A stretch of DNA of 64,000 nt from a virus (IMGVR_UViG_3300045988_046609), one strand, 5' to 3'; numbered from the stretch's first letter, positions 3,001 to 38,111 are shown. Made by a program: numbers and translations. Notes: generated from the sequence alone by a model not told the origin.

Positions 3001-4233
3001 CTTGGATTAGGTCTCAACTTAGCTGTTGGAGCTACAGGTATGGCTACAGCTTTTTTGGCTCAGCTAGGTATGGCCGCTAATGGTAGATATTTCGATTTTT
3101 CTTCTTTTTCCAAGGCATATTTCAATATGGTAAGTAACTTGTTTGGTATAGTATAGTATGCAAAAGATACTACCACTAACAACAAGTATGTGGCATTGAT
3201 GCAGAGATTCGAAATAGGCACAGAATTCTAGAATGCTTTTAGAAACTCTAATAGAATTGGTATAATAAACACGATAAGTAGGAACTGGGCGTTCGGAATT
3301 TTTTCATTTTCTGATTTTGTAATCAAAGGTACTATACTAAATTCGATTATGAATAACTATAGATACTACAATGGAAGATTCTATAATAGTCAATAGTTCA
3401 ATTAGTTATTCTCTAACAAAGAAGATGCAAAAAACATCTGGAGGACTCTATAGAGTACTTATGATATAATTGAAATAGAAAATGGAAATATTGTAATTAG
3501 AGATAAAGCATAGGCTAAAGCTTTTGCTGAAGTATAGAATGAAATTAGTAATAGTGCTAGATCTCTTTCTGCTACAGCTGATGGGCAATTAACAGAAGAA
3601 CAGAAAGCACAATTCGCTTCTAACGCTTTTGGTTCTCTTATAATGATGTTTCGTAATTATATACCGAATATTATTAGTGAAAGAATCACTATGAAAAAAT
3701 AGTATGACTATAATTTAGGTATGGAACGTGAAGCTTTATTAAGAACTATAGGTAGAGTAGTACCTATGTTAATAAAGGATTGGAATAGTCGTAAACAACT
3801 AGATGCATCTGATATAGGAAATATTAGACAATTTAGTTATGAAATGACTATGATTGCTTTATTATCATTTGTAGTTAAACCTTTATTAGTTGAAGTTGCT
3901 GATGATGATCGAGACAATTGGGTTAAAAACTTCTTAGCTCTTCTAGTAACTAGAACTGGATTTGAGTACGGTAACCAATATAATCCTCTAGACTTACTTA
4001 ATACTATTACTTCAGTAAGTTCTATATTCGACATTATGAACCCATTCACTAATCTTATATCACTTAGTGAAATGTGGGAAATTGCTGTTAATAATAAGAA
4101 AATTAAGTATGGAGCTTATAAGGGCGACACAAAATTAGAAAGATGGTTATGGAAAATGACTCCATTTAAGAATGTCAAAGAAATTCAAGATCCCGCAATC
4201 AAACGAAAATATTACGAACAATTATACAAATAA
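1..4233 (+). CDS. Giant late protein, last ~1410 codons (5' end outside window), TAG read as sense; function unknown
   Basis: Track ORFs 922-1215, 1219-1476, 2371-2577, 2731-3156 and 3721-4233 are all in frame 1 and separated only by TAG. My manual translation of frame 1 from nt 1 finds ~22 TAG but no TAA/TGA until TAA 4231-4233. Confidence 0.8.
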
Positions 4234-7946: not shown

Positions 7947-8941
7947 TTGTTAATATTTTTAGTTAACCAATTTTTTACTTTTTCAAATCCATTAGCTTTA
8001 ATAGCATCAGATATATCCTTTGCCTTAAATTTCTTATGGATTAACATACCTTCTAAGCCTGTTTTTTGACTCATTTTACGAAGATATTTTACTCCAGCTC
8101 TGTCACGATCAAATAATATAATAATGCGCTTAAAACGCTTCTTAAGTCTATCTAATACCTTTTCAGGTATAAAGGTTGATTCTGAAGACGGAGATATTGC
8201 TGGTATTCCCATTTCGTATAAACACATGACGTCTTTCATACTCTTTGTAATAATGAGTATATCTCCAGTCTTAGGTAACTGTTTATAACCTTGAATATCT
8301 AATTCAGTTAGGTTATTACGCCATTTTGTATATTTGTCGGCTAAAGGTTTATATATCTTAAAATGATTATAAACTTTATATGCATACATTGGATTATCTT
8401 CTTTGTAAACGCTTTTTACTATGCCGTTGCATAGGTAGTACTTTATACTACTTACTCCAAACTTCTTTAAAGTATCTACCGTAATATTAAACTGCTTCCA
8501 GTAATTGATGTCAGTATCAGTGAAATTCTGACGTACTACACCAATTACTGTTTCAGTTGACGGTATATATTGCTTAGAGCTAACTAATTGCGTATCTTTA
8601 GTAATTTTAAGTTTCTGAATAATATCCTTAAGTATATCATTATAATTTGTTAATCCAGTATAAATACTTACAAATTTAATAACGTTACCGCATTCTCCAG
8701 TTCCATGATCTTTAAACATTAACTGTTTACTAGTTCTACTATAGAAACATCCAAATGATGGGTTTCTATCTTTACGAAACGGACTATTGTAAATCATCCC
8801 TACTTTAAAATTACCTATATACGCAGCATATATATCATACTCCGTTACTTTAGAAAGTATATAATCTAAAGTAATATTATCATCATCGTTTATTATTTTC
8901 GTTGTATCGTAAGTCATATGATATATTTTTAGTAGGAGCAT
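7943..8941 (-). CDS. DNA primase (DnaG/Toprim-like)
   Basis: 332-aa ORF with Toprim-like ILIITKSMKDVM and IIILFDRDRAG motifs, located in the replication cluster. Confidence 0.5.
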   Translation of the reverse strand: MLLLKIYHMTYDTTKIINDDDNITLDYILSKVTEYDIYAAYIGNFKVGMIYNSPFRKDRNPSFGCFYSRTSKQLMFKDHGTGECGNVIKFVSIYTGLTNYNDILKDIIQKLKITKDTQLVSSKQYIPSTETVIGVVRQNFTDTDINYWKQFNITVDTLKKFGVSSIKYYLCNGIVKSVYKEDNPMYAYKVYNHFKIYKPLADKYTKWRNNLTELDIQGYKQLPKTGDILIITKSMKDVMCLYEMGIPAISPSSESTFIPEKVLDRLKKRFKRIIILFDRDRAGVKYLRKMSQKTGLEGMLIHKKFKAKDISDAIKANGFEKVKNWLTKNINK

Positions 8942-9136
8942 AGAGATTCGAACTCTATAATAAATAAGAAATATATCTTTTTCTTATTTATACCATATTT
9001 CTGAATATCAGAAACTCCTATTTAAAAACGTAGGTTGTGCACTATTGTGTGTCACTCATTTTTTCATAGTGCGGTGCACTAACCTACGTATTCCTAGCTT
9101 ATGCTCTAGGTAGCTACTGTTATTTTATTTTCTTCT

Positions 9137-9739
9137 TTAAAAAGGAAGATCACCTGTTGGATCAAAAGATGTTTCCATTAGAGGATTAGTATCCTTAGTT
9201 TCTACATCTGCTATTACAGGTTTAGTAAATTGGTCTATACTCAATTCTGCAATTTTACTCTTTTCTCCTTCAGGAAGATTCATTGGTTCAATAAAAGTAA
9301 ACTTACAATAATTAGGCAATGTAGTATATCCCTTTTTATTATATACTATCTTTACTCTAAGTAAAATATTCTTGTTTGCTGCATTTAGCATCATAGCAAC
9401 CCAATCAACAAAGTCTTTATAAGAAGAACCAGCAAATACTAGTGCCTCTTTAGGATAGAAACATTCAAGAATTTGCATAATTCTTTTAACTTGTTTACTA
9501 CCTCTAGTTTGACATTCCTCATCAGACTCTCCAGGTTTCTTAGTAGATTCCCATTCTGTATGAGTTAAATCTTGTCCTTCTTTAGTAAATTTTACTTCAA
9601 GAAAGATATTTCCGTTAATAGACTTGTCAACTTTTGCTCCTACAAGCTGTACGTCTTCATGAATACCTGCTTCTAAGTATTTACTTTTTAAAACGTCTGT
9701 AGTCTCTATTTTGTTTGCTAATTCTGTGCTATAAATCAT
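9137..9739 (-). CDS. Putative ssDNA-binding protein
   Basis: 200-aa ORF between primase and recombination ATPase. The acidic C-terminus ends in DLPF, resembling the SSB C-terminal DDDIPF tip. Confidence 0.4.
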   Translation of the reverse strand: MIYSTELANKIETTDVLKSKYLEAGIHEDVQLVGAKVDKSINGNIFLEVKFTKEGQDLTHTEWESTKKPGESDEECQTRGSKQVKRIMQILECFYPKEALVFAGSSYKDFVDWVAMMLNAANKNILLRVKIVYNKKGYTTLPNYCKFTFIEPMNLPEGEKSKIAELSIDQFTKPVIADVETKDTNPLMETSFDPTGDLPF

Positions 9740-9753
9740 AACTTAATCATTTT

Positions 9754-10494
9754 TTATTCAGGTAAATAAATTTTGTCCCAATAAGTAGTAATTACATTAT
9801 CTGCATCACTTTCTGCTACTACTATATTCTTTCCTCTTAGATGAGGTGCTCTTGCTTCTCTTACAGAATTATCTCCTCCTTCAAAAGAAATATGAGTTTC
9901 ATTCTTCTTTCTATATACATAGCCTACTGCATCCGCTTCACCACATATAATATTTGCAAGTTTACCTACTAAATCAAGAGACATTTCAGATAATTCTTCT
10001 CCTTCTTTATTAATCATCTTATCTTTTAAGTGACCAATTAAGATTAAATTATCGCATAGTTCTTTAAACATATCTATTACTTTTCTTACAGCTTGTTGTA
10101 AATATAAGTAACCAGATCCATTTGGCAGTGTTCTAACATCAGAACCAGTATAACCTTTCCCCATTGGAGTAGCCTTATACAATTGTACTGCAAAACTCAT
10201 GCACATTTCTTCTAATCTAGAAGCATTATCTATAGTAATATACTTATAAGGTTTCTTACCTGTTTGTTTAATTTCTTCTTTAATAGCACTAGCTATATCT
10301 CCTAAATCCTTTACGGATCTAGCTTGTACAGCTAATGCTTCCAAAAACTCTGATCCTCCTTCTAAGTCTATAATTAGATTGTTGTCTAATCTAGATACTA
10401 AAGTAGTTTTACCAGCTTTTGGTTTGCCAAATAGTATTAAAAATCTAGGATTTTCTACCTTGGCTTTTATCTTTTCTTTTGGTAATACAATCAT
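9754..10494 (-). CDS. Sak4-like / AAA_24 RecA-fold ATPase
   Basis: Walker A LILFGKPKAGKTTLVS and LILIGHLKDK segment. Confidence 0.55.
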   Translation of the reverse strand: MIVLPKEKIKAKVENPRFLILFGKPKAGKTTLVSRLDNNLIIDLEGGSEFLEALAVQARSVKDLGDIASAIKEEIKQTGKKPYKYITIDNASRLEEMCMSFAVQLYKATPMGKGYTGSDVRTLPNGSGYLYLQQAVRKVIDMFKELCDNLILIGHLKDKMINKEGEELSEMSLDLVGKLANIICGEADAVGYVYRKKNETHISFEGGDNSVREARAPHLRGKNIVVAESDADNVITTYWDKIYLPE

Positions 10495-10517
10495 AAAGCT
10501 TATTTATGTTATATTCC

Positions 10518-10550
10518 TCTGATAAGTTTCTGATAAGTTTCTGATATATG
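10518..10550. repeat. Three tandem 11-bp units tctgataagtt / tctgataagtt / tctgatatatg
   Basis: Read directly in the intergenic region upstream (minus sense) of the ATPase start at 10494. Confidence 0.8.
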
Positions 10551-10564
10551 GAATAATTATTTTA

Positions 10565-11080
10565 TTAGAATAAACCACGATTTTTAATCTTAATCGTGAT
10601 ATTGATAATAGTTTTCTTAGTTTTAGGTTTCAAATGGTTTAATGAACCTGGCATGATTGGAATAATATCGTATCCAATCTGTACGAAATTATCGAAGATC
10701 TTAATAGGAGTACCAAATTCGTCTTCAAAGTCATAATCTTTCTCAAACGGATAGTTTTCTTTAGCAAATATATCAAGAGCATTAATTGCTTTAAAGAATT
10801 CTTTCTCAAGATCGAAATTAATAGTATCTTCGTTCCAACACTTAAACGGGCAGTTAGCACATTCTTTAGGAAGCCAGCTAACTTTATGAGTATTGCTCAA
10901 CCCAAGAGTAATAATATCTCCTGCAGATGCATACTCTACACCATTATTAGAATATGGATAATCAAATTTACTATCTACTGTCAACCAAGGGTAGGCAGTG
11001 ATTACTCGTTTCAACAAATTATCTTTATAAATTTTTGCAGTATCTTCTTTCTTCGGTAATGTAATTGTATATGTTTTCAT
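10565..11080 (-). CDS. Hypothetical protein (171 aa from internal ATG)
   Basis: Track ORF 10565-11155. Start trimmed to MKTYTITLP (ATG 11078-11080), which lies downstream of the helicase stop at 11097. Confidence 0.55.
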   Translation of the reverse strand: MKTYTITLPKKEDTAKIYKDNLLKRVITAYPWLTVDSKFDYPYSNNGVEYASAGDIITLGLSNTHKVSWLPKECANCPFKCWNEDTINFDLEKEFFKAINALDIFAKENYPFEKDYDFEDEFGTPIKIFDNFVQIGYDIIPIMPGSLNHLKPKTKKTIINITIKIKNRGLF

Positions 11081-11096: not shown

Positions 11097-12083
11097 TTAA
11101 TTGTTATTACTAAACGAAAATTTCTTTGCTGGTTCTTCGTCTCGTACTGTTTCAATTAAATTATTGTATTTTAGATCGTTATCAAACTCTAATATTGAAC
11201 ATTCGCCTGCATCTCTGTTTTTTAGTATATGCAGATAGACTTTGTTCTTAACTAGTAAACGATTCGGTCCATATTGTTGTATATTGAGTAGTTCTGGTCT
11301 ATGAATACAAATAACATAATCAGAAGCATGAAATATTGTATCAGCAGAAGAAATATCGCTACGCATTGGATAATGCATAGAAGGATTGTTAATTCTATCA
11401 GGAGCTTCAATGTTTCGGTTCATCTGTGATAACTGAATTATAGTAGTATTAGGGTATTTTTTTACCTTAATAAATAGTTTCTGTAAATCCGAAATCACTT
11501 GCAAGGCAGAAGCTTGACCTTCAACAAGTAATGTATGATCTAATATGATCACAAATCTCTTGCCTTTAGCCTTATTCTCATAGAAGTAATCTATAGTAGA
11601 AGCTATATTGTCAACTGTTCCCGGTGTATCTACATAATATATCGGATATGACTTTATTTGTTGAGTTGTTTCTTCAACATTCTCTAATAATTCATCTGTA
11701 AGACTATTATTAGCGCTATATAGCTCAGCAGTAGTTTGCCTTAACTTACTGCTTATTTTTCTACCTACTTGCCTAGAACTTAGCATCTCAAAAGAGAAGT
11801 TAAGTACTATAACATCCTGATCAGAATTGAGATCTATTAAATCGTTTTCTAACGTATTCACAAATGAAGACTTTCCACTACCAGATATACCTACTATAGT
11901 ATAAATAGTATTGGGTTCAATTCCTCCCATACATTGAGTATTGAACTTCTTCCACCTTGTCTTAAGAGATTCAATCTCATGATTTTTTCTCTTCTTTATA
12001 TATTCTACTGTCTCTATAGCTGCAGAAGATATATGACGAAATGTAAGTGTATTAGTAGATATCTGTTCCATAATTATTTTCAA
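11097..12083 (-). CDS. DnaB-family replicative helicase (RecA-like domain)
   Basis: Walker A IVGISGSGKSSFVN, Walker B RFVIILDHTLLV, DnaB-type LSQMNRNIE and ADTIFHASDYVICIHRPE. Confidence 0.8.
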   Translation of the reverse strand: MKIIMEQISTNTLTFRHISSAAIETVEYIKKRKNHEIESLKTRWKKFNTQCMGGIEPNTIYTIVGISGSGKSSFVNTLENDLIDLNSDQDVIVLNFSFEMLSSRQVGRKISSKLRQTTAELYSANNSLTDELLENVEETTQQIKSYPIYYVDTPGTVDNIASTIDYFYENKAKGKRFVIILDHTLLVEGQASALQVISDLQKLFIKVKKYPNTTIIQLSQMNRNIEAPDRINNPSMHYPMRSDISSADTIFHASDYVICIHRPELLNIQQYGPNRLLVKNKVYLHILKNRDAGECSILEFDNDLKYNNLIETVRDEEPAKKFSFSNNN

Positions 12084-14646: not shown

Positions 14647-14763
14647 TTCCCTATTTCGGATTTGAACCGACGACCTCCCCTAACATATACGAATATATAG
14701 TAATACGAATATTACATCAATATATACGAATTACAGGATGCTCTACCACTGAGCTACTAGGGA
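14647..14763 (-). ncRNA. tRNA-like RNA whose anticodon arm is replaced by a long AT-rich rod capped by a UUCG tetraloop
   Basis: Minus strand reads TCCCTAG-TA-GCTC-AGTGGTA-GAGC-A-TCCTG-[51 nt]-TAGGG-GAGGTC-GTCGG-TTCAAAT-CCGAA-ATAGGGA-A. Acceptor, D arm and T arm are canonical. The 51-nt insert contains ATTCGTAT three times and the hairpin GTAATA-TTCG-TATTAC. Confidence 0.6.
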
Positions 14764-16312: not shown

Positions 16313-16891
16313 TCAACCTTTTCTGATTTTAACAATTTTGTTATTTAGCTTTCCGATGATCGGTAATATCCGTCCACCACCGAGATCTACACCTACGCCA
16401 ATCTCAACATCACCGTCAAGACTGTACTCGTGTTTATACTGTTCACGTTGTTCTTCTGCATATTTTTTTGCATTTTCCTGATTGATATATTTAGAATGTA
16501 GTTCCCCGTCTGAACAATTCCTCATACTATCAAACAAAATATCTACTACACAGTCGAAGTCGCGTTCTTTTACAGCTTTATCAAGAATACTTTTAGTAAT
16601 TCCGTCAAAAGCAACATCATTTCTGGATCCATTAGATCCAGTAATTGCGTCTGCTATACGAATTGATGCATCTATAATACTTACCGATTCATAAGAATTA
16701 CAGCATCTTTGCCACCAAATTGGTCCACGTCCATAATAAAAATAGACGGTTCCATTCTCTTTAATTTGAACCTTTTTAGGAGTTTCAATTACAGCTCCGT
16801 TCCGAATCTGAACTTTGCTGAGAATTGTTGGCTCTGAGCAAATAAGTATTCGCAGAAGCTCTACTCTTATAGGAGAAATTCTGCTATTCAT
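16313..16891 (-). CDS. Hypothetical protein (192 aa), visibly GC-richer than its neighbours
   Basis: Uninterrupted ORF, TGA stop. Confidence 0.55.
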   Translation of the reverse strand: MNSRISPIRVELLRILICSEPTILSKVQIRNGAVIETPKKVQIKENGTVYFYYGRGPIWWQRCCNSYESVSIIDASIRIADAITGSNGSRNDVAFDGITKSILDKAVKERDFDCVVDILFDSMRNCSDGELHSKYINQENAKKYAEEQREQYKHEYSLDGDVEIGVGVDLGGGRILPIIGKLNNKIVKIRKG

Positions 16892-16898
16892 AACTTAC

Positions 16899-17546
16899 TT
16901 ATCCCTGGGCTTGTTCGATAGTTACGTTTACTTCTACCTGATCTTCGTTAGTGATCCCACACTGCCGTAAGTACTCTACTTGAGCACGATCCTGTTGGTC
17001 CATAATGTTCCGGACAGTTTCTGCAAGTTGCATGTTTTTACGGGCTTGTTCCTCATAGAAATTCAGAATAGATGAGTTATGCATCTTTAAGCATGTATTC
17101 AACTGCGGAAGTTCAGAAGGACCAAAGAAAATAGGTCTTGTAGGATTTGTTGGATCGTTCGGCTTGGTTAATGTTGCAATACAGGCCATTACACTTTCCC
17201 GGGTTGCTTTCTGGAAATTCGGTTCAGCAAGATCAAATACCAGTGATGGATCCTGAGACTTCGGATTCAGAATTACCTTTGGATGACCGTCAAAGTCCTT
17301 TTCACAAAGTTCAATACCTGTAATATCAATAGGCTTGACTATGAAAATCCGGACATCCTTCCGTAATGTGTTCTTGTCATTCTGAACATCTTCTTTCCAT
17401 TTCAGATCTGGGTTGTGTGATACAATTGTATAGATCTGGCTACTAAAGTATTCTCCATACTTTTTACAAACTTGCCGATATCGAGCCATAATAGAAGCTA
17501 ACTCCGTGTTAGGAGTAACCATTTGTATTTTACTATTTTGTTCCAT
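16899..17546 (-). CDS. Hypothetical protein (215 aa), visibly GC-richer than its neighbours
   Basis: Uninterrupted ORF, TAA stop. Confidence 0.55.
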   Translation of the reverse strand: MEQNSKIQMVTPNTELASIMARYRQVCKKYGEYFSSQIYTIVSHNPDLKWKEDVQNDKNTLRKDVRIFIVKPIDITGIELCEKDFDGHPKVILNPKSQDPSLVFDLAEPNFQKATRESVMACIATLTKPNDPTNPTRPIFFGPSELPQLNTCLKMHNSSILNFYEEQARKNMQLAETVRNIMDQQDRAQVEYLRQCGITNEDQVEVNVTIEQAQG

Positions 17547-19674
17547 AAAAAATGTTCCCTTCTTGATTCCGTACTTGATATACCAATACGGATCATTTTT
17601 AGTTTTTAAGTTAATAATAAGTTAATGCTCTCCACTGTTCGATTATTTTATAGTATTACAATAATGGTAATAGTGAATTCAATCACATAATCTACTAAGT
17701 ATATTTGATAATAAATGTTAATTTATTCGAAAATATCTTTTGATAAATTCTCTGATAAATTTTCTGATAATATGCTTTAACGTCCCGTTTCGACGGTTAA
17801 GATTCAATTTTTTCGATGCTTAACGCACCCCTCACCGTTATTTTATATCGCTATTAGTTGCAATATAAAAGACACAGATCATCGACTAAGTAAGTCTACC
17901 TGGTATTTCCGTATTATCGAAATTCATAGAATTACGGTCGTTTATCTAACGTTACCAACTCATGAGCTCATTGCTTAAAGCATGACCCACTCATACCATG
18001 CATAGGATTTGTTGTTTATAACTGCGCGAACACGAGGATTTCCACCTCTCATCGTCTCCTTGTTGCTTGATTGTTATTACGATCAAGTTAAATACTTCGT
18101 CCTTTAATCTACCGAGACAGGGTGATAGACGACAGGTTATTAACGAATCAGCGTTCTCTTTACGTATATATTTGCGATATATACTTTATGAGTTTCTAAT
18201 GTCAGCGATAACGGTTGGCAGTCTGGGGGTGACTTATACTCCATACGGTCTGTCTTACAAATGACAATTTGCTACTTCTGTACTATCATTGGACTTCCCC
18301 AATTTCTATGTGACTCATAGCCTTCCTACACTATGCAGTCTGATTAATAATATTAATTTATTCCCTTAGAACAGATTTAACTAGGCCGGTTCTATTCGGC
18401 ATTAACTTTCAGATGCAGTAAAGTAACATCATCTGTTCACAATCTTACCTCTCTGGTTCCAGGGTTCTAAGCTGGAGCAGCTTGGCTCTTACTTATTAAT
18501 TTATTGTTTTTGACTACTACTAATATCTCCTACTCTGGAATGAGTGTGATAATCTAGTAATACACCTTTTACATATCTTGAAAGGTATAAGCTCTGCTGT
18601 TTTTAGAAGGAGTTCCAAAGCTTCTCCTTAGTATTATTTTATGTCATAATCGTACTTGCTAAAGGTACGTGACAACTAGAATCAGGGTTATTGCGCCCTC
18701 AAACCGCTTAGACATCTTTGTCTATTCATTCCTCATTCAATTATACTCACACGAACGAATAAGCACGTGAGTCACTTTAGACTTGAAAGACGGTATCAAT
18801 CTCATATACCTCATCCCTTATACGTAAATTCTTTTGCGGCACGCTAGTTACGGTAGCGCACAGGATTGGCTCCTGCTCCCTGGTAATCAGTCGGATCATG
18901 GATCTGCACGTAGCTTCACTCCCCGGATCATTGCATGTCCAGCCTTCATATCTTTACTTTGTATAAGTATGTACCATAACACGGTTATCCTTACATTAGT
19001 ATCAGTAATTACTCCCTTTATATTATGAACCAGTTATCATAAAAACACTAGAGTTAGCCTATTTTTCCAATCAGGACGTATAATTACGCTTTTGTATAAA
19101 GCGAGGTTGGAGCCCGCTTGTTGCGTTAGTCAGCCATAATATTATTCAATAATCCTTTTCCAAGGGATTATTCAAGAGCCCTTTGCTCTTGTTTCAGCAT
19201 CGTGTTCATATTCCTTCTTGAGTCACATCTTGATTGACGCATACGAATATAGAGATTTCGTTCTCTTTTTGAGGATTAAGGACTTTATCTTTTACAGTTT
19301 TATTTGTTTATTGCTGCGATTCAGTCTCCTCTTGTTTGAATTAATTTGTAACTAGGGTATCTTCTTGTTGCTCCTATATTACGGGTTCTTCACTCTTAAT
19401 ATCACCAGACGGTTCTCATATTAACAGCGCAGGCTATTCACCCTCTCCTGCTTTCTTATACCTTTTTCACCAGCATAAGTTATTATCCTACCTTTTGAGT
19501 ATCTTACGGTGTTAGCCGCTACGAAGCATCTCATAACTACTTCTTACATATTCTCGGATTCTGTCTTTTTCGGGCTATGTATAAATGAATACAAACTCCC
19601 TGACGCAGTAGTACTTAAAAACTTCCTTCTGTGACTGCCGGAGTGATTTACGCTATAGTTTTACTCCTCTCGAA
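17547..19674. other. ~2.1 kb ORF-free, hairpin-rich region (candidate large structured ncRNA or several small RNAs)
   Basis: Only two short, implausible + strand ORFs in six frames. My trial translation of the minus strand hits TAA/TAG/TGA every few tens of codons. Many perfect local stems, for example aataatcc/ggattatt and caagagc/gctcttg at ~19150-19195, and cgcta/tagcg at ~18843-18859. Confidence 0.5.
17739..17773. repeat. Three ~12-bp-spaced units tttgataaatt / tctgataaatt / tctgataatat
   Basis: Read directly at the left edge of the non-coding region, ~190-230 nt upstream (minus sense) of the start at 17546. Related to the repeats at 10518-10550. Confidence 0.75.
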
Positions 19675-20139
19675 CTATGATATAATTATAGTATTTATAT
19701 AGCGGTTATTATCATTAACTTTTTCCGCTGAGGGTTTATCTTCCCCTACACTAAGTTGCTCCGGTTTTATACAGAAAATTTCTCCTGAAGATAAGTTAAT
19801 ATTTGCAACTATTTTCTTACCTCTGCATATATCTACTATGCCGTTTTTTATATCATTACTACTGATATAATCAACTGGATCCATTTGTCCTGGGTCAAAA
19901 CCGTCCAAGCGAACACAAATCTCACTTACAGACGAACGTAAGTACTGCTCTACGAATAAGATATTCTCGCAACTAGCTTTAGCTTGTACCTGAATTAAGT
20001 TAGTACTTTGTCCTTGCACAATAAAGTAGTTTGATTGGTCTATTACGAAATCTAAATTTCGTCTAGCTTCTTTAATGTTACGTATGATACGCGATAGACG
20101 TGCCATACTATTTAACATAATGTAATTTTTCTTATTCAT
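19675..20139 (-). CDS. Hypothetical protein (~154 aa), terminates in TAG
   Basis: ORF with stop codon TAG (plus strand cta at 19675-19677). ATG at 20137-20139. Confidence 0.55.
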   Translation of the reverse strand: MNKKNYIMLNSMARLSRIIRNIKEARRNLDFVIDQSNYFIVQGQSTNLIQVQAKASCENILFVEQYLRSSVSEICVRLDGFDPGQMDPVDYISSNDIKNGIVDICRGKKIVANINLSSGEIFCIKPEQLSVGEDKPSAEKVNDNNRYINTIIIS

Positions 20140-20585: not shown

Positions 20586-22124
20586 TTAAGGATCTGGCTT
20601 AGCTTTTTTTTCAACCTTATCCTCTTTTGAAGGAAACTCTCCTGTAGTAGGAGTAATTATGCCTTCTTCGTATTCTGCAAGACGATCCATAGGATCACGA
20701 TACAGATTGATAATCTGGCCTATCTTCATACGAACTTCATCTTTAGATGGATGCTGTCCTTCTGGAAAATAGTTCTGACTTACTAGATCAAACTGCTTTT
20801 TTGCAAGTTTGAGTGCTTCTTGTTGTTCACTGTAGTCTTTATCTCCCGGTTTAGATGTTACACCGGCAGAAATAGTATTGAATAAATCATCAATATACTT
20901 TCTACCAACATTTCCAATTACTGCTTGAAGTGCTTTATCGTCAGTTGCCTTCAGATTTTCATCACTCTTAAGTTTGTAACGGAAGTTTTCTTGCAACAGT
21001 ACTTTTAAAGTACTTGCAATCTGTTCTTCACTCCAGCCACATGGTGCCATATGCTTATGTAGTAAGGAATGAGCGGAGACCGGAGAACCCTGTGCAGCAG
21101 TATATAAATATACTGTACGTCCAAGACCATTCATTAGTGGAACACTGTTGATAATATGGAAGATCTCTTCAATCCACTCTGCTACAGTGCGATTGTCAAG
21201 TTCAATCTTCTTTTCTGCATTATCTTCTTTGTTGATACAGTATACACGATACCATTCAACTGTGTTAACAATATTAGTTGCAATATTGCGATCTTTACGC
21301 ATAAGATGATCTAGGACAGCAGCTAATTCTTCAAGAGAATTGATGTCCTTAGGATCAAGCGAAATAGGTTTTGTAGGAGCCTCAGCTTTGTTTTCCTTCA
21401 ACTCATCAGGAATTTTAGTATCTGGAGAATTGAAATCAATTGCTAATTGACCTTCATTCTCTTTTCCCGGAAGTGCTTTAGGTTCAGCTAAAGTAATGCC
21501 AAGAGAATCTGCAATATCCTGCAATCGGAAGATCTGTTCAGCAGGTAGTTTACACACAAACTCACCGGCAGCAGATCGTTCTGCAAATTCATTCTTGATA
21601 TCAATCATTCCAAGCAACCATACTGCGTCGATAGATCGAGCTGTATTTGCATATGATTCTGGACTTTGGTTCTTATACTCTTCATTATTAATGAATCGTT
21701 GATAACCAACATACGCAAGCATTGCTTTCGCATCAGCAGAAGAGCGATTAGATCCAATAGGGATTCCATTTCCTATTGCAGGGATTTTACCAACTTTTTC
21801 TTCCACTTCTGGAATTATTGTAGGAATCTTTGGACTCTTCTTTCCTTTATCAGCCGTTTGTTGGGTAGGCTTCTTTTCTTCCTTTTTCTCCTCCTTCTTA
21901 GTTTCTTTCTTAGAAACTTCCTGACTCTTTTCTTGTTTAGAGTTTGCTGCAGGTTTTGGAGCAGATTTCTTCTCCTGGGTTGCTGAAGTATTATCAGCTA
22001 CTTGCTGAGTATCCTCAGCTTTACTGTTCTCTGATTTAGCATCAGCTGATTTTTTGTCAGCTAGACTTACTTTTGTTGCAACTTTTGCTGCATTTCCTCC
22101 TTTATTATTCTTTGGTTTTGACAT
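20586..22124 (-). CDS. Hypothetical protein (512 aa) with Lys/Glu/Ala-rich low-complexity N-terminus
   Basis: Uninterrupted ORF, TAA stop. Confidence 0.65.
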   Translation of the reverse strand: MSKPKNNKGGNAAKVATKVSLADKKSADAKSENSKAEDTQQVADNTSATQEKKSAPKPAANSKQEKSQEVSKKETKKEEKKEEKKPTQQTADKGKKSPKIPTIIPEVEEKVGKIPAIGNGIPIGSNRSSADAKAMLAYVGYQRFINNEEYKNQSPESYANTARSIDAVWLLGMIDIKNEFAERSAAGEFVCKLPAEQIFRLQDIADSLGITLAEPKALPGKENEGQLAIDFNSPDTKIPDELKENKAEAPTKPISLDPKDINSLEELAAVLDHLMRKDRNIATNIVNTVEWYRVYCINKEDNAEKKIELDNRTVAEWIEEIFHIINSVPLMNGLGRTVYLYTAAQGSPVSAHSLLHKHMAPCGWSEEQIASTLKVLLQENFRYKLKSDENLKATDDKALQAVIGNVGRKYIDDLFNTISAGVTSKPGDKDYSEQQEALKLAKKQFDLVSQNYFPEGQHPSKDEVRMKIGQIINLYRDPMDRLAEYEEGIITPTTGEFPSKEDKVEKKAKPDP

Positions 22125-24975: not shown

Positions 24976-25581
24976 ATGCAAAAGTATAAATTACATAGAA
25001 GTTTAATTACTGTTATATGTGATCAATGCGGTAAAGAATATCTTAAACCTTTATCTGAGTATAAAAGAAATAAAGAATTAGGACGTCATAGTTTTTGTTC
25101 TAGATCTTGTTCTTGTAAATATAATTGTGTTCATTCATCTAATAAAATGCTAGAATATTCTAGATCAGAAAAAAATAAACAACGTTTAAGGTCTCTAAAT
25201 GAAATAAAACGCTTAAAACGTCCAGAAGCAGTATTTTCATATTGCCTACGAAACTGTAGAAAACGATATAAGGAGTGTACTATTACATTAGAAGACTTAC
25301 AAGAACAATGGAATAAACAAAAAGGTATATGTCCTTATTCTGGAATATCTTTATTAGTTCCTACATATAAGAAAAATCATAATAATCCAATATATAGTGC
25401 ATCAGTTGATAGAATTGATAGTACTAAAGGTTATATTCCTGGTAATATTCAATTTGTATCTACATGCATTAATTATATGAAGAATACTATGTCTGATGAA
25501 GAAACAAGGTTTATGTGTAAATGTATTGCAGAATATTTCTATTCTGAAGGGACTATTTCATCATCTGTCATTACTGCTTAA
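24976..25581 (+). CDS. HNH-family (beta-beta-alpha-Me) nuclease-like protein with N-terminal Cys-rich zinc ribbon
   Basis: 201-aa ORF on the opposite strand to all neighbours. It has CDQCGK...CSRSC, then ICPYSG...ASVDRIDSTKGYIPGNIQFVSTCINYMKN. No in-frame TAG, TAA stop. Confidence 0.5.
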   Translation: MQKYKLHRSLITVICDQCGKEYLKPLSEYKRNKELGRHSFCSRSCSCKYNCVHSSNKMLEYSRSEKNKQRLRSLNEIKRLKRPEAVFSYCLRNCRKRYKECTITLEDLQEQWNKQKGICPYSGISLLVPTYKKNHNNPIYSASVDRIDSTKGYIPGNIQFVSTCINYMKNTMSDEETRFMCKCIAEYFYSEGTISSSVITA

Positions 25582-26261
25582 GATGTCGGACGCTCTAGCT
25601 GGTTATTAAGGAAACTATATTCCTCCAGTAGTCTCTGCACTTTTATAGAGTGTACTCTATACTTAGCTCAAGATTAGCATGAATAAAGCTAGTTTTGAGC
25701 TTTATTTTTAGCTTTCCTTGAATTCATCCGATTATTCAATATACATTTCTGTATAAGGGGTCCGAATTTCACAAACCCTCGTCTTACAACTGATTCATAG
25801 ACCTAACAGTCAATTGTGACTATGTAGGCGACCAAACCTACATAGCCTTTGGTCTTTTAAATTATTTTACTTATAAGTTTTGATAACTGATCATTTATAG
25901 ACTAGTACAGAAGTATTACTACTCAACATTTGCTATAATGTTTGCCGATTTGATATCATAAGAATGCTATTTGCATAATATACTCTTTGAGTATAGATTC
26001 AATACTATATATTGCGCAATTATTATAATACATCCTCACGATCTTAGGCACTTGATCAGTGGCACGTTTTCTAGTCCAACTCCAGTATTGAATAGTTCTC
26101 ACTATCGTACATTTGTTTGTTTCCTGTCAATTCAGGATGAAGCTGCTTATTGTAGATACCGATGTACATGGATCTCACCATTTGCTTTCAATCTTCTTCG
26201 GATTCTCTATAGAATTAATATCTCTATTATTCAAGTATCTTTCCTGGACCTTGTGTGGCTA

Positions 26262-26726
26262 TTATCTTCCGACGATTGCATCGTCATAACGCCAACTGTA
26301 TCTTGCTTCCGGATACTGGTTGTCGAGTGCATTACAGGTTTCCTCATACCATTTGTCGTTTTCACGCAATGCTTTTACTGCAATGTTTTTGGCTTCTGTT
26401 GCCTGTTTCTGGAACTCAGTAGTAGACAGAGTTGCATTTCCGGATTTGAGATCTTCTACCAGAGCAGTATACTTCTTTAAGTATTCTACTTTGATATTTG
26501 CCTCTTTCTTTGTCTTTTTCATAGACAATACCATACGCTTGTGCGTATAATCAGCCTTGTTTACAATTGAAATTAACTCTTTCGTTAACTGCTCTTTCTT
26601 TGCTTCTGCAACTTTTTTTGCAGCTGCTTCTGCAATTTCAGCAGTTACTACTGCACCATTTTTGATAACATCCTCGATGTTTTCAGTAGACAGAATATCT
26701 GCTACTTTTACTTCTTCTTTTGCCAT
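26262..26726 (-). CDS. Ala/Lys/Glu-rich hypothetical protein (154 aa)
   Basis: Uninterrupted ORF, TAA stop. Confidence 0.6.
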   Translation of the reverse strand: MAKEEVKVADILSTENIEDVIKNGAVVTAEIAEAAAKKVAEAKKEQLTKELISIVNKADYTHKRMVLSMKKTKKEANIKVEYLKKYTALVEDLKSGNATLSTTEFQKQATEAKNIAVKALRENDKWYEETCNALDNQYPEARYSWRYDDAIVGR

Positions 26727-26965
26727 TTCTTGATAATGTTTAAAGATTGATACTATTATTAATTAACACTAAGTTTTAAATTAAAAAAAGAACTGTTCTG
26801 CATATTTGTATACCTTATTTTGCAGATAACCCCTATCCTTCTTCTATCCTATTAGGATTGCCGTTGTATAGCCATTGTACTCTAGTTCTTACGAACTTCC
26901 ATTAGGGTTCTGGTATATTTACAGTTCTTTTGGGTTGATTAGAATCCACCATACTAACAATTTAA

Positions 26966-27148
26966 TTAGTAGTATATAACAGCGGGCAGAGGCTCTGGCG
27001 GAACCTCTTGCTTGTTATTCGTTGTCATTCTGAGTTTACACTCAAGATCACATTCACTACAGTTGATAATATTATCTTGTGTAGGACATTCGTTAGAAAT
27101 CGAATTTGAAGTTTTCATGATCATCTCGACCAAATAAGTGTTTGACAA
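26966..27148 (-). CDS. Small Cys-rich hypothetical protein (start uncertain)
   Basis: ORF overlapping the end of 27093-27500, with CPTQDNIINCSECDLEC. Confidence 0.3.
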   Translation of the reverse strand: MSNTYLVEMIMKTSNSISNECPTQDNIINCSECDLECKLRMTTNNKQEVPPEPLPAVIYY

Positions 27149-27500
27149 TCATAGGCTTACATATTCTTACAAATTCTTTTGCTGTATCTTTGTCTTTGAA
27201 TTCCAAAGAAGTACCGACATAGGCAAAAGCAGCGCCAAGCGCACTGCTAGAATCCAAACGGAGCAAACCGGAAGGTTTTCTGTTATCTGTACAATTCCAA
27301 CCCCATACGTAATATCTTACCTCTCTTGGATCCATTGTTGTAGGTTTCCAGCCTTCATTTAAAGCTTTTGCAATGGTTTCTAACTTGATGAAATTCCTAG
27401 TTTCATCTGTTAATTTGTAGCTTTTATAATTAGCTACAGGACGAAGACCTAGTATTTTACATGCGTCTTCATAAGGTTTTTCTTTACTTAATTTAATCAT
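27093..27500 (-). CDS. Hypothetical protein (135 aa)
   Basis: Uninterrupted ORF. Confidence 0.55.
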   Translation of the reverse strand: MIKLSKEKPYEDACKILGLRPVANYKSYKLTDETRNFIKLETIAKALNEGWKPTTMDPREVRYYVWGWNCTDNRKPSGLLRLDSSSALGAAFAYVGTSLEFKDKDTAKEFVRICKPMIVKHLFGRDDHENFKFDF

Positions 27501-27596
27501 GCCTTTTTGCGATTATAAGGTTCCATTTTCTTATGCTTAGGACGTTTTTTATATTCCGTCTTAGTTTTTACTTCTTTCTCCTTATCTTTTCCCATA

Positions 27597-28082
27597 TTAA
27601 ACAAGTTCTACTACGTCGTTGATTTCTTTTATATACTTACCTATATTCTCTAGATGAAAATCTTTTAGAACATTTATTACAACTGATTTGTTAGTTTTTA
27701 CTCCTACTCCTTTTACTAAGTAAGTTATGACTTCTTTATGATCAGTTCTAAACGTACTGTCATTTACAAAATACTTGATAAACTCAAGTTTAAAGTCTTC
27801 AACAGTATGAAACAATATTGGATCTCCAACTGTTTCATGTATCTTATTACAGAAGGATATCAATTTGTTTTTAAATGTATTTACGCCTTTAAATGTGTTA
27901 TCATCTATATTAGGCATCATTAACTTAAGTAAATCAGTTTCATCGTATGTCTCTACATTAAGAGCATTTGCTCCTTCAGCATCTGTATTAGTACACACAG
28001 TAGATATGATATCTTTAATCAAATCTTCTTCATGTTTATTACTTCGGTAATTACCGTTGATTAAAATTAATACTGCTTTCAT
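27597..28082 (-). CDS. Hypothetical protein (161 aa)
   Basis: Uninterrupted ORF. Confidence 0.55.
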   Translation of the reverse strand: MKAVLILINGNYRSNKHEEDLIKDIISTVCTNTDAEGANALNVETYDETDLLKLMMPNIDDNTFKGVNTFKNKLISFCNKIHETVGDPILFHTVEDFKLEFIKYFVNDSTFRTDHKEVITYLVKGVGVKTNKSVVINVLKDFHLENIGKYIKEINDVVELV

Positions 28083-28084
28083 AA

Positions 28085-28330
28085 TTATTGATTAATTATT
28101 GTTATTTCTATCTCATATTCATCTAACTGATTTTTAATTTCATCAGTAGATAATTCTGAGTTAATTTCAAAGTGTGGATTTAACTCCACTGTTACACCTG
28201 GTTTGCTTCTAGCTATAGGTTTAGCTATGCTTATAGGCATTCCTAGTATGCTTTTTAATCCTAATAGGATTGCCAGAAATTGGTCACTATGCTGTGTTAC
28301 AGAAGTGACATACCTCTTGTTTTTATTCAT
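28085..28330 (-). CDS. Hypothetical protein (81 aa)
   Basis: ORF tightly packed behind 27597-28082. Confidence 0.45.
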   Translation of the reverse strand: MNKNKRYVTSVTQHSDQFLAILLGLKSILGMPISIAKPIARSKPGVTVELNPHFEINSELSTDEIKNQLDEYEIEITIINQ

Positions 28331-28826
28331 TTTACATAGGCTTTAAATTGTTAGTTAATAAAATTGATGACGTTACTCTAGGGTATTCTAGAGTAAGAAA
28401 CACATCTGTTAACGAATGATTCAAGTTATAATACCATAACTTTGAGACTAATACTAAAATGATTTCAAATGCACTTAACGCTTTGTGTTAATAAAGAAAA
28501 TCAAATTTTAACATTACTTGTTAGAGTTTTATTCTATGACTCTCATATGTTTTAGGATTACTCCAGAGTACATACAGAAATAGCTGTCAAACTAAATCTT
28601 AGAACTCACCTGATTTTTACGTCCGCACGATCGTAAGCACAAATACGAGTATTTCTATACTTATCTTATCGTATTTAGTACAGTATAGATATGCACTTAC
28701 TTACGCCCCACAGGCTTGTCATCTTCTGAAGACTAACCTATTCTCACGAACCAGTTAGCTATAAATTCACATTTAACTATTAATCTTAATAAATCTTTGT
28801 TAAATACTACTATGCATATACTTTCT

Positions 28827-29276: not shown

Positions 29277-29462
29277 TTAACCCTCCGTTTCTTCGTACAA
29301 TGATTGAACAACTTGGATACTTTCAGTTACTACAAATATTCTGTCTGAAGAACCTATTTCGGTATTTCCGTCACATACTTCTGCATAACAGAATCCGTCA
29401 CTAGCAATGAGAATTTCTTCTCCTGTCTCTTTGTCATGTACAATAAAACTTTTCTTTTTCAT
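29277..29462 (-). CDS. Hypothetical protein (61 aa)
   Basis: ORF abutting 28827-29276. Confidence 0.45.
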   Translation of the reverse strand: MKKKSFIVHDKETGEEILIASDGFCYAEVCDGNTEIGSSDRIFVVTESIQVVQSLYEETEG

Positions 29463-29488
29463 TTTGATAATGTTTTAATAGTTAATAA

Positions 29489-29788
29489 TTATTTAATAGT
29501 ATCACCAACAAAGTATACATTCATATATAAGTAATCTGTAACGTATACTTTATATTCTTGATCAGTAATTGGATTTACTAAACGAAATACATAATCAGTT
29601 TCACTTTCTTGAAATTTATCTGAGACTATATAACGTTTATACCGCATTTGCAAATCCACAAAGTTATATGGATCTTTAGGAACATATTCTTTAAACATAT
29701 AACAAATAATTATAATAGTTATAGATACTATTAATAATTTACTTATTCTGTTAAGAATATCAAAGTGACTTTTTACGCGTACTACCAT
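29489..29788 (-). CDS. Membrane-anchored hypothetical protein (99 aa)
   Basis: Hydrophobic segment LLIVSITIIIICYMF. Confidence 0.45.
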   Translation of the reverse strand: MVVRVKSHFDILNRISKLLIVSITIIIICYMFKEYVPKDPYNFVDLQMRYKRYIVSDKFQESETDYVFRLVNPITDQEYKVYVTDYLYMNVYFVGDTIK

Positions 29789-29866
29789 ATTATTTATTTA
29801 TTTCTTTCCATAACATAATACATTCATACACTACAACTACTACTACTACAATAGTAGCTGCAATAG

Positions 29867-30148
29867 TTATTGTTGCGAACCACATTTATCACAGATTTCA
29901 TTATAGATATCTTCCCAGAATTTAAAACCTTCTTTAGTATACATCCAAGGAAATGAGCATATTAGTATTCTACTTATTGGTCTAATACTAAATAACCTAA
30001 TCGCATTATCATTATAATTTGTAGTAATTTCTCTCTTAATAATTAAGTTAGAGATATAAGAGGATAATGCATTATTTCTAATTAATGTAATTAATAGTAA
30101 ATAAGGCATATTGACCACAATAAGATGTCTTTTACTGTTTTTCTTCAT
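29867..30148 (-). CDS. Hypothetical protein (93 aa)
   Basis: ORF, TAA stop. Confidence 0.4.
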   Translation of the reverse strand: MKKNSKRHLIVVNMPYLLLITLIRNNALSSYISNLIIKREITTNYNDNAIRLFSIRPISRILICSFPWMYTKEGFKFWEDIYNEICDKCGSQQ

Positions 30149-30527
30149 ATATACTTTGATTATTGATTAATACTCTTAAATAATTTAAATACATTAGCTT
30201 CACATGCAAACTAGGAAGGTTTGTTTTTTAACATGTTACTAGACTCTATCACCACGATGAGGTTGTATTTATTGATAGAGAATACTACTACAATACCTTA
30301 TTAGTATTAGGTTTTACATGTAGTAGTTAGATACGTGACATCGTATATAATATTTTAATTAGTAATCAAATAAAATAAAGTAAGCGCATTAATATAATAA
30401 CTAGGTATATAAAGATATATTAGATATCTCATTTGAAAAAGTTATTATAAGCTATGCTAAGAGCTATCTTGGAGATCTCGTTTTCTCTTACTTTGGTTGC
30501 ATTAAAGTTAGCAGTCTTTCTAAACTG

Positions 30528-30713
30528 CTAATTACATTTGTCTGCATTTTTCATTAATATTAGTATGATATACCAGATGGATATCATTAACGAGAAGATC
30601 AGTAAATATTTACCGAAAGTTCCGAGTTTGTGACTATCTGCAATTAAATTTGCAGTAATCTCGGCACAGAAAAAGTTATAAACCATGCCAACATAGAGTA
30701 TAATTCTATTCAT
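30528..30713 (-). CDS. Small membrane protein (61 aa), terminates in TAG
   Basis: Two hydrophobic segments. Stop TAG (cta 30528-30530). Confidence 0.4.
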   Translation of the reverse strand: MNRIILYVGMVYNFFCAEITANLIADSHKLGTFGKYLLIFSLMISIWYIILILMKNADKCN

Positions 30714-31070
30714 CTTATAATAAATTATTGATTAATATTATTACTTATCACGCTTTATTAAGCAACTACGCAGATAGTACATGACGTGAGCTCGGTTCGG
30801 CTCGTAATTATGTATTTATCTGCGCATACATAATATTGCCACGATGTCCTTTTAGGGCGCGGACTAGCCTGCCATATGGAATTTCAAATGAAATGCAAAT
30901 TAAGCCTTTTAAAGTCTTGCTTAGGACTATGATGTTGAGCATTCTTCACTTCGGTGGGCTTGCTCAATCCCACGCCACAACTTACACTGGTTTTCACAGA
31001 CGTGTGGTGTTTTCAAATTATGGATACATGACTTGTAAGTTTAAAGTATATGCGCTTACAACTATTTTGG

Positions 31071-31286
31071 TTAGACATTATTTATAGATTTTTCAAAAGA
31101 TAAATCTTCTTTAGTTCTAATAAGGCTGTTTAATACATTAATACAATGTTCTGTAATGTCTTTATTGTTACATGTTGTAGATATTTCATACTCTACACTA
31201 TGTATATCTATCAGTATTCCTGCACTTATTTCAAATGCAGCATTACTCATTAAACTGATGAGATTATTCACTTCGGTTGTATTCAT
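31071..31286 (-). CDS. Hypothetical protein (71 aa)
   Basis: ORF, TAA stop. Confidence 0.4.
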   Translation of the reverse strand: MNTTEVNNLISLMSNAAFEISAGILIDIHSVEYEISTTCNNKDITEHCINVLNSLIRTKEDLSFEKSINNV

Positions 31287-31377
31287 ATACTTGATATATA
31301 TTATGATTAAAATTCGACTATCTTAATCTATTGCTTTCAATGTTATGGTCGGAATGAGGGGTTACCCCCTCATATCC

Positions 31378-37249: not shown

Positions 37250-37352
37250 GGGAGAGTGGCGGAATGGTATACGGCAGTAGATTGACGGAAGCGCCCTAAA
37301 GTCGTCATTAACAAAGCTCTTGGGTTTGAAAGTTCGAGTCTTTCCTCTCCCA
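37250..37352 (+). tRNA. Atypical 103-nt tRNA-like gene (Leu-like D arm, no canonical anticodon arm)
   Basis: Perfect 7-bp acceptor GGGAGAG/CTCTCCC and T arm GAAAG-TTCGAGT-CTTTC. D region TGGCGGAATGGTATACGGC resembles bacterial tRNA-Leu. The central 53 nt offer only a TGACG/CGTCA stem around a 15-nt loop GAAGCGCCCTAAAGT. Confidence 0.5.
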
Positions 37353-37360
37353 CTTAATAT

Positions 37361-37435
37361 TCCCCTATGGTGTAATGGTAACACTCGGAGCTCTAACCTC
37401 CGTATTGCCCGTTCGAGTCGAGGCTGGGGGGACCA
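37361..37435 (+). tRNA. Amber suppressor tRNA, anticodon CUA (Gln-like body), CCA encoded
   Basis: TCCCCTA-TG-GTGT-AATGGTA-ACAC-T-CGGAG-CTCTAAC-CTCCG-TATT-GCCCG-TTCGAGT-CG(A)GGC-TGGGGGG-A-CCA. Anticodon CTA at 37393-37395. The D arm ATGGTGTAATGGTAACAC resembles tRNA-Gln. Confidence 0.85.
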
Positions 37436-37610
37436 ATAAGGGTAAGTTTGCAGCGGCTGTGAGTAGATCCGAACTTCTGAAAGATGATAAGAAGACTCTC
37501 TACTTACCTTTAACTTATTTATTAAAGAGGTCAATTCACGGTTTGGGTAATGCGCAAGATATCTGAGGCGTTGGCATTTTATCTTACGAACCTCCTTACT
37601 CTACATTATC

Positions 37611-37892: not shown

Positions 37893-38022
37893 AGTATGGC
37901 GCGCATACAACGTAACTTCCTAAGTCACTAGCTATGTAAGGAATCTCATAGTTAACACAGCTCATGATGGACCTAATCGTAAGTAGACAAGTTTGACAGA
38001 GTTCTTGTATAAACTGTAGTAC

Positions 38023-38095: not shown

Positions 38096-38111
38096 CTTAA
38101 GAAGAAATAAT

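Follow-up and report, generated by a model that had tools for sequence, protein, structure and literature searches.

The stretch of DNA analysed here (64,000 nt in length, hereafter the window) belongs to a delta crAss-like phage (Suoliviridae, Loutivirinae). In its replication gene block, where every surrounding gene lies on the minus strand, the succession of genes is interrupted by a 2.1-kb element devoid of open reading frames (ORFs). The gene order runs from a sigma-like gene through genes for proteins of ~125, 512, 129 and 155 aa to the ORF-free gap, and on through genes for proteins of 215 and 192 aa to, later, the DNA polymerase. The element adjoins the 215-aa gene directly and in the same orientation; at its other end, the stop codon of the 155-aa gene upstream is immediately followed by the 5′-terminal hairpin of the element. 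No gene is interrupted by the element, since the ORF on either side is complete and, in all relatives, forms a gene of its own. Region and flanks share ~91% identity with the crAss-like phage cr56_1 (Suoliviridae, Loutivirinae, Buchavirus), and seven other Loutivirinae records match the region as well. The features described below are compiled in Table 1; RNA coordinates (1–2128) are obtained by subtracting the window position from 19675.

Table 1. Position of the element and of its structural and sequence features in the window
Feature	Window position	Strand	Remarks
Whole ORF-free element	17547–19674	−	No ORF, no codon periodicity, full-length homologues
5′-terminal hairpin GGAGU...ACUCC (helix H02)	19640–19667	−	Invariant in Loutivirinae, alignment A1
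5′ domain core	19485–19557	−	Universal blocks CCGAGAAUAUGU (19546–19557) and UCAAAAGGUAGGAU (19485–19498)
Universal block UGAGAACCGU	19409–19418	−	Invariant in alignments A1, A2 and A6; aligned in Oafivirinae nhmmer matches
Adjacent covarying hairpins H22 and H23	19148–19191	−	Compensatory pairs: 3 in H22, 6 in H23
Central domain	18784–18995	−	Closed by helices RNA 680–712 with 854–891 (H33–H44)
3′ multi-helix domain	18016–18298	−	Universal blocks ACUGCCAACCG (18212–18222) and UUCGnGCAGU-AUAA (18016–18030)
8-bp hairpin H61	18164–18184	−	8/8 pairs compensatory; as helix 9 in the 3′-domain count, 7/8
Three direct repeats UUAUCA(G/A)A, 12-nt period (TCTGATAA repeats)	17734–17770	−	Tandem repeats by TRF
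Invariant 25-nt block UAGUAGAUUAUGUGAUUGAAUUCAC with palindrome UGAAUUCA	17673–17697	−	Invariant in alignment A1
Terminal hairpin (H86) followed by UCAAGAAGGGA	17554–17592	−	Just upstream of the ATG of the 215-aa gene

With regard to base composition, an earlier note on this DNA, made from the sequence alone, had described the region as clearly richer in G+C than its surroundings. Its G+C content is indeed higher than that of the whole window (36.7% vs. 33.0%), but only modestly so, and resembles that of coding DNA at 20.6–22 kb, on the right-hand side. The accompanying observations were accurate, namely that the plus strand is rich in pyrimidines (57%; T 776, C 444, A 571, G 337) and that the two downstream genes (16313–17546) share the elevated G+C (35–41%).

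Across all six frames of 17547–19674, the longest ORF comprises 65 aa, and no more than 115 codons become open when any one stop codon is read through, which agrees with the earlier claim that this interval is free of ORFs even under TAG readthrough (the phage recodes TAG). To examine substitutions by codon phase, the window was aligned to six relatives and mismatches were counted at each phase. The region as a whole lacked 3-periodicity (p 0.34), 13 overlapping 300-nt segments within it gave p-values of 0.06–0.72, and all six flanking ORFs were strongly 3-periodic (p 1e-16 to 1e-62). The stop read-through and substitution phase tests rule out cryptic coding: neither an open frame nor 3-periodic substitution, as expected of a protein-coding gene (standard or stop-recoded), is present, and the region does not code for protein. 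A hidden, frameshifted or spliced protein gene, raised earlier as a possible outcome, is absent too, given the lack of 3-periodicity and of any match to an intron model. Small ORFs are annotated inside the region by some RefSeq/GenBank records; between records, they are not conserved.

As for the flanking proteins, searches against Pfam, PHROG, NCBIfam, PADLOC and PDB sequences returned no significant matches, and AlphaFold models of the 512-aa and 192-aa proteins (pLDDT ~67) had no Foldseek match below E 0.3. A weak resemblance of the 192-aa protein to FtsJ-like proteins (E 0.3) was judged spurious. The 512-aa protein combines a novel helical domain with a 125-residue, lysine-rich disordered tail, and one flanking protein occurs on at least 1000 contigs. 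The flanking genes resemble exchanged cassettes. A tRNA-like match lies 2.8 kb downstream of the element in the window, and true tRNA genes are located 1.3 kb downstream in cr4_1 and Dulem virus 42.

Conservation and distribution

Full-length homologues of the element, 2.07–2.13 kb in length, are present in eight phage records. Compared with three other Buchavirus species, the region shows nucleotide identities of 0.90, 0.88 and 0.79 (flanking genes: 0.51–0.80), making it the best-conserved segment of its neighbourhood within this genus; where the RNA is 88–90% identical, the 215-aa and 512-aa proteins are 39–47% identical. Among close relatives, the sequence of the element is more strongly constrained than the neighbouring genes. 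Because the region is the most conserved stretch of its neighbourhood, we reject the notion, entertained in the earlier note, of a degraded acquired segment.

Scanning IMG/VR with the invariant 18-mer of the UAACCGUGUUAUGGUACA block produced at least 120 matches and, among the matches listed, 95 were full copies of 2014–2184 nt (87 of them unique), with identities down to 64%. In a metagenome scan, at least 120 contigs were hit and, among the matches listed, nearly all were no longer than ~105 kb. The 185,579 species genomes searched contained eight matches: four phage-sized contigs of ~100 kb binned into metagenome-assembled genomes (MAGs), three shorter MAG contigs, and a probable chance match on a 262-kb Rugamonas contig. 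No bacterial chromosomal homologue was found among these genomes.

Distant homologues of the 512-aa protein led to the Oafivirinae genomes cr7_1, cr272_1, cr131_1 and cr124_1 and to a lemur phage, each of which has a gap of 2.0–2.2 kb at the same syntenic position. More generally, a syntenic gap of 2.0–2.4 kb was present in every Suoliviridae genome examined (from metagenomes of human, pig, macaque, lemur and other origin). When the Loutivirinae region was turned into an nhmmer profile, it matched the Oafivirinae and lemur gaps colinearly (E down to 1e-20), and a second IMG/VR scan yielded 83 loci with 49 complete gaps of 2001–2367 nt, which fall into 11 clusters at 75% identity and have a minimum identity of 39%. 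Four sequence blocks are universal, with their order and spacing kept in both clades; likewise, total length and the order and spacing of these anchors are maintained across clades that are only ~45% identical, and no clade examined lacks a module of the element. This distribution points to an element ancestral to the Suoliviridae. The window contains a second long region without ORFs (29277–31377; 2.1 kb), which is AT-rich, poorly conserved in the same genomes and carries small annotated genes; it was rejected as a paralogue of the element.

Covariation, fold and domains

The structural evidence comes from covariation only, as the folding energy of the single sequence is not above chance. For three 710-nt thirds of the region, minimum free energy (MFE) z-scores against dinucleotide shuffles were −1.21, −0.41 and −0.87 (not significant), with −3.84 for a coding control. 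Since single-sequence MFE is no better than that of shuffles, stem density is no evidence of structure, and the description of the region as hairpin-dense did not hold up. The individual stems listed in the earlier note do exist, within ~15 nt of where it had placed them (ccgt/acgg at 17785–17796, cgcta/tagcg at 18842–18858, aataatcc/ggattatt at 19148–19172 and caagagc/gctcttg at 19173–19191), and several coincide with the covariation-supported helices H22, H23 and H43. That note had let its reading hinge on conservation and covariation among relatives; the region is conserved and it covaries.

A scan for helices as stacked column pairs (at least 4 pairs, at least 93% pairing), controlled by parallel registers, revealed 13 antiparallel helices with at least three compensatory pairs compared to none in the parallel control. 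At a threshold of two compensatory pairs, 42 antiparallel helices faced 16 parallel ones, and a second, HMM-aligned data set gave 11 versus 0. RNAalifold, applied to 42 representatives, folded the element into 86 helices with 420 pairs, 148 of which show two-sided changes. Compensatory base pairs are thus above controls, as is generally expected of a structured non-coding RNA (ncRNA), and selection acts on base pairing in dozens of hairpins and several domain-closing helices with a span of 150–200 nt. All covariation-supported helices are local or close domains of ~200 nt or less; for helices spanning more than ~300 nt, no covariation above the parallel control was observed. The long-range helices H07, H12, H47 and H68/69 predicted by RNAalifold are invariant or inconsistent in some clades and, as they do not exceed the parallel control, are not claimed. 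The most conserved nucleotides fall into junctions, internal loops and domain-closing helices, as in other large folded RNAs, and variable stretches lie between the conserved blocks.

In the 5′ domain, CCGAGAAUAUGU pairs with UCAAAAGGUAGGAU (AUCC/GGAU and GAG/CUC); the paired segments flank conserved internal loops, and a covarying hairpin lies between the two blocks. By nhmmer, these core blocks were recovered in Oafivirinae at E 1e-20. A covariance model of this domain (R1), built from 16 Loutivirinae sequences only, was applied to 51 non-Loutivirinae loci, 50 of which yielded a single full-length match in the orientation of the genes (E 1e-7 to 1e-18). The R1 matches were 92.8% paired vs. 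78.6% and scored 0.316 vs. 0.132 (0/500 shuffles), in an alignment that is fitted to the model and somewhat favours structure; in three variable helices of the same model-fitted alignment, 11/13 pairs were compensatory. Further along the RNA, hairpin H23, read in the minus sense, carries a GGAA tetraloop at its tip. The central domain holds the invariant block UAACCGUGUUAUGGUACA (18970–18987) together with hairpins H42 and H43, and one of its helices (RNA 708–714/852–858) contains three compensatory pairs.

The branched 3′ domain is closed by pairing between the ACUGCCAACCG and UUCGnGCAGU-AUAA blocks. Over 18010–18303, 92.7% of cells were paired (81.4% in shuffles), 32/64 pairs were compensatory (21.4 ± 2.0 in shuffles), and the covariation score of this domain (domain C) was 0.360 (0.163 in shuffles; 0.05–0.08 in slid registers), none of which was reached in 500 shuffles; some pair counts were made on alignments that had been fitted to the tested structure or derived from it. 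The closing helix, formed by ACUGCCAA with UUCGnGCAGU, covaries across clades: among 221 distinct sequences, GUG/CAC (98), CUG/CAG (51), CUA/UAG (14), GUA/UAC (6) and CAG/CUG (1) replace one another. Within the domain, the loop of hairpin H61 is an invariant GCAA of the GNRA type (G129, C130, A131 and A132 are invariant in alignment A4). The hairpin and its loop argue for the minus sense and for a putative tertiary contact.

The minus strand is, more generally, the best reading of the RNA. The alifold energy is −499.7 kcal/mol in the minus sense vs. −456.9 kcal/mol in the plus sense, with 420 vs. 392 pairs; conserved GNRA-type loops (GCAA, GGAA) occur in the minus sense only, which is also the direction of all neighbouring genes. 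Counts of G-U vs. A-C (212 vs. 57) constitute a weak test of strand, as the control is skewed as well (115 vs. 44).

The last ~230 nt of the element have the appearance of an expression region of the downstream genes. Here, the TCTGATAA repeats, already noticed at the left edge of the region and called by TRF as a 12-nt unit × 2.5 at 17741–17770, follow the last strongly covarying domain. They are conserved in Loutivirinae only and may serve as a protein-binding or regulatory site; beyond this one 12-nt repeat, no repeat arrays or direct-repeat families of note were found in the region. The UAGUAGAUUAUGUGAUUGAAUUCAC block is unique in the window, where a search allowing up to 3 mismatches matched it once; it is a candidate operator, promoter or RNA dimerisation site. 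In the other clade, the element ends in a hairpin analogous to H86, followed by AUCAAAAAGGAU, so that both clades share a terminal hairpin and an A/G-rich box 10–20 nt before the ATG. Probably, the downstream mRNA has its true 5′ UTR here or is processed at this site. A promoter and terminator scan of the region, based on the sigma-70 consensus, which probably does not apply here, gave counts not above those of shuffles.

Relation to known RNAs

The element belongs to no known RNA family in Rfam 15. A cmscan of 17300–19900 against all 4227 families at E up to 10 returned a single chance match, to a frameshift element, consistent with the absence of intron, rRNA and tRNA signatures from the earlier reading. 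Specifically, the region had no match at this cutoff to group II intron models (domain V/VI or D1–D4), to SSU, LSU and 5S rRNA models, or to GOLLD, ROOL, OLE, HEARO and raiA. Neither the group I intron P3–P9 core (RF00028) nor rRNA signature sequences were found in it, and both ARAGORN and Rfam were negative for tRNA and tmRNA; the only two tRNAs called by ARAGORN in the window are at 37360–38096. As a positive control, RF00028 identified a group I intron at 25529–25784 (85 bits) in the same window, other parts of which also match the Hatchet ribozyme, RAGATH-9 and RAGATH-20. At the gathering threshold, Rfam gave no match inside the corresponding gaps of nine loci from the other clade. In the Crassvirales literature, we found no mention of the region; most subscription journals lay outside the coverage of this search, and an earlier description may thus exist.

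The nearest analogues in kind, unrelated to the element and only loosely comparable, are GOLLD (RF01998) and ROOL (RF03087). GOLLD is ~800 nt long and ROOL 581 nt; the element, with ~2.0–2.4 kb, is ~2.5–3.5 times longer than these RNAs. Both are large, multi-domain, covariation-supported ncRNAs of unknown function that are often carried by phages or prophages and located near tRNA genes (PMC5737381; PMC12286853). The element shares the size class, the multi-domain and covariation-supported make-up, the phage location and the nearby tRNAs, but is confined to a single family of lytic phages of Bacteroidota. Structurally, GOLLD and ROOL are defined by a homo-oligomeric RNA-only cage.

Group II introns offer a further comparison, being kilobase-scale RNAs of several helical domains around conserved junctions that also occur in phages. 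Unlike these, the element has neither an ORF for an intron-encoded protein nor a match to an Rfam model, and instead of occurring sporadically, it occupies a fixed syntenic position in all relatives. To our knowledge, no bacterial RNAs apart from the 16S and 23S rRNAs match or exceed the element in length while also combining conserved junctions with peripheral helices that vary and covary; the element differs from these rRNAs in being phage-encoded and family-specific. Finally, conserved structured non-coding regions in human-gut phages, including some Crassvirales, have been described as the ncRNA arrays of UG27 reverse transcriptases (RTs) (PMC9226505; bioRxiv 10.64898/2026.09.22.753630). 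UG27 systems consist of an RT of 380–450 aa, two partner proteins and a repeated stem-loop array. Among seven flanking proteins of the element, no significant match to an RT was obtained (Pfam and/or PADLOC), and the element contains no repeated units. Due to the lack of both an adjoining RT gene and repeat units, it is not an array of the UG27 type.

Interpretation and significance

Conservation and covariation together argue that the region is a real, structurally constrained non-coding RNA element. We consider it reasonably likely that it constitutes a minus-strand ncRNA gene or gene block, most plausibly one very large multi-domain RNA that acts as RNA. The more specific proposal that ~1.9–2.1 kb form one RNA molecule with a defined three-dimensional architecture, either RNA-only or bound by the orphan flanking proteins, and function in infection is put forward tentatively, its chances falling slightly short of even. 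In the model, ~1.9 kb (roughly RNA 1–1900) would be made as one long transcript, which would fold into at least three autonomous multi-helix domains. The RNA might then act in trans in early or middle infection, as an RNA architecture or a ribonucleoprotein scaffold, with the fast-evolving flanking proteins, including the one with the 125-residue lysine-rich disordered tail, as possible partners; the last ~230 nt with their repeats, palindrome and terminal hairpin would serve expression of the downstream genes.

The earlier note had left the choice between one large structured RNA and a cluster of RNAs undecided. Both readings persist, and the data favour one RNA: a single global fold, or a single molecule, is inferred from colinearity, constant size and the lack of internal signals, while helices spanning more than ~300 nt show no covariation above the control. 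A cluster of independent smaller structured RNAs (e.g. three to six of 150–400 nt) plus a regulatory region, held together by synteny, would account for every covariation-supported helix being local or closing a domain of ~200 nt or less, as well as for the variable stretches between conserved blocks, and the window does encode other small ncRNAs nearby (RAGATH-9, RAGATH-20, Hatchet). We nevertheless regard such a cluster as rather unlikely, albeit the most serious competitor: no promoter- or terminator-like signal inside the region rises above shuffles, no sub-part matches any Rfam family, no clade examined is missing a module, and total length as well as order and spacing of the four anchors are kept across clades of ~45% identity.

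The remaining alternatives carry little weight. That the entire region is one very long structured 5′ leader, controlling the 215-aa and 192-aa genes in cis at the level of translation, stability or antitermination, is improbable despite its co-orientation with, and abutment on, the 215-aa gene, the conserved hairpin and A/G-rich box 10–20 nt before the ATG in both clades, and the repeat and palindrome just upstream. With 2 kb and more than 80 helices, it far exceeds any known cis-regulator, and its supposed targets are the least conserved genes of the neighbourhood (40–43% aa identity vs. 88–90% for the RNA). The long 5′ leader suggested previously is therefore a possibility for the last 100–230 nt, the only UTR-like part, but not for the rest. 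Less probable still is an element acting as DNA, such as a replication origin, a packaging or recombination site or a protein-binding array, with hairpins forming in single-stranded DNA. Its location in the replication block between the sigma-like gene and DNA polymerase, the 12-nt direct repeats and palindrome at one end, and flanking genes that look like exchanged cassettes would fit such a function; yet cumulative GC skew passes straight through the region without a break, iteron arrays are lacking apart from one 30-nt repeat, and the pairing constraint extends over ~1.9 kb, with many G-U pairs and with GNRA-type loops on one strand. One might also suspect a mobile element in decay, an intron that lacks an ORF, or a protein gene that is cryptic or recoded: mobile RNA elements abound in the window (a group I intron and ribozymes among them), the phage recodes TAG, and RefSeq records of its relatives have small ORFs annotated inside the region. 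This idea is close to refuted, as neither intron nor ribozyme models were matched at E up to 10, the ORFs on either side are complete, the region stays closed under read-through of any single stop and has no codon periodicity, the annotated ORFs are not conserved between records, and the region surpasses its neighbours in conservation, contrary to what decay would produce.

If the element is one molecule, as we favour, no larger structured RNA other than rRNA would be known from bacteria or their viruses, and its conservation extends across the whole of the crAss-like family that is richest in species in the human gut. Every Suoliviridae genome annotation has a hole at this place, for which the element accounts; in several RefSeq/GenBank records, spurious small ORFs fill it. 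Since the element surpasses its neighbours in conservation, it may also be of use as a marker for Suoliviridae. It also provides a defined target for cryo-EM, chemical probing and metatranscriptome mining. Few biological entities in the human gut are more abundant than the phages that carry it, and the function of the element could bear on how crAss-like phages take over their Bacteroidota hosts.

Protein-coding genes flanking the RNA element

The genes for the 215-aa and 192-aa proteins downstream of the element and for the 512-aa protein upstream (window 16313–17546 and 20586–22124) all have raised GC content and are 97–100% identical to their counterparts in the near relative cr56_1. Against other Buchavirus species in which the RNA retains 88–90% identity, these genes are only ~40–60% identical. 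From these comparisons, the three genes look like exchanged or fast-evolving cassettes around a conserved core.

In the Blohavirus cr53_1 (L006 1801–3000), the 215-aa and 192-aa counterparts are apparently fused into one 399-aa ORF, of which tblastn confirmed only the 215-aa part; this apparent fusion suggests that the two proteins act together. The first ~125 residues of the 512-aa protein (window 21750–22124) are disordered (pLDDT ~30), enriched in Lys, Ala and Glu, and resemble a nucleic-acid-binding tail. The remainder is confidently predicted as an all-helical domain, for which no fold match was found in the PDB. A segment of this gene that served as coding control (20600–21309, minus strand) folded far more stably than its shuffles (z −3.84), which is not expected of an mRNA segment.

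ORF calls and ORF-poor sequence

Public records of relatives place ORFs within the homologous RNA region (see table). None is conserved from record to record, and they are probably spurious. A second 2.1-kb stretch of the window (29277–31377) has zero ORFs of at least 100 aa even under TAG read-through, is AT-rich (29% GC) and weakly conserved among Buchavirus, and in its cr56_1 counterpart several small genes are annotated. Considered as a relative of the element, it was rejected as unrelated.

Other RNA elements, tRNAs and probable TAG recoding

Known RNA elements crowd together at 25529–28733 of the window. Upstream of the element, at a distance of a few kb, Oafivirinae relatives have a hammerhead ribozyme (RAGATH-1) and a permuted tmRNA encoded by the phage.

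Features in the window and in loci of relatives
Feature	Location	Strand	Basis
Group I intron	window 25529–25784	−	Rfam, above gathering threshold
RAGATH-20	window 26040–26137	−	Rfam, above gathering threshold
RAGATH-9	window 26786–26942	−	Rfam, above gathering threshold
Hatchet ribozyme	window 28608–28733	−	Rfam, above gathering threshold
tRNA match, 117 nt	window 14647–14763	−	Rfam, 34–35 bits
tRNA match, 103 nt	window 37250–37352	+	Rfam, 34–35 bits
tRNA, anticodon CTA	window 37360–37435	+	
RAGATH-1/tmRNA	L137 577–658, 6510–6745; L139 4269–4632; L141 4479–4835		
145-aa ORF	L002 and L003 (cr113_1, cr109_1) 3273–3710	+	Public annotation
ORF	L137 (cr7_1) 11249–11731	−	Public annotation
Dozen tiny ORFs	L140 (Dulem virus 42) 8642–10650		Public annotation

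Two Rfam tRNA matches of unusual length, neither called by ARAGORN, may represent intron-containing or degenerate tRNAs. The 117-nt match is found 2.8 kb beyond the element on its downstream side; a tRNA-Arg occupies this place in cr4_1. The tRNA with anticodon CTA is an amber suppressor. In the right half of the window (38000–64000), most 'gaps' without long ORFs close under TAG read-through, in keeping with TAG recoding of late genes.
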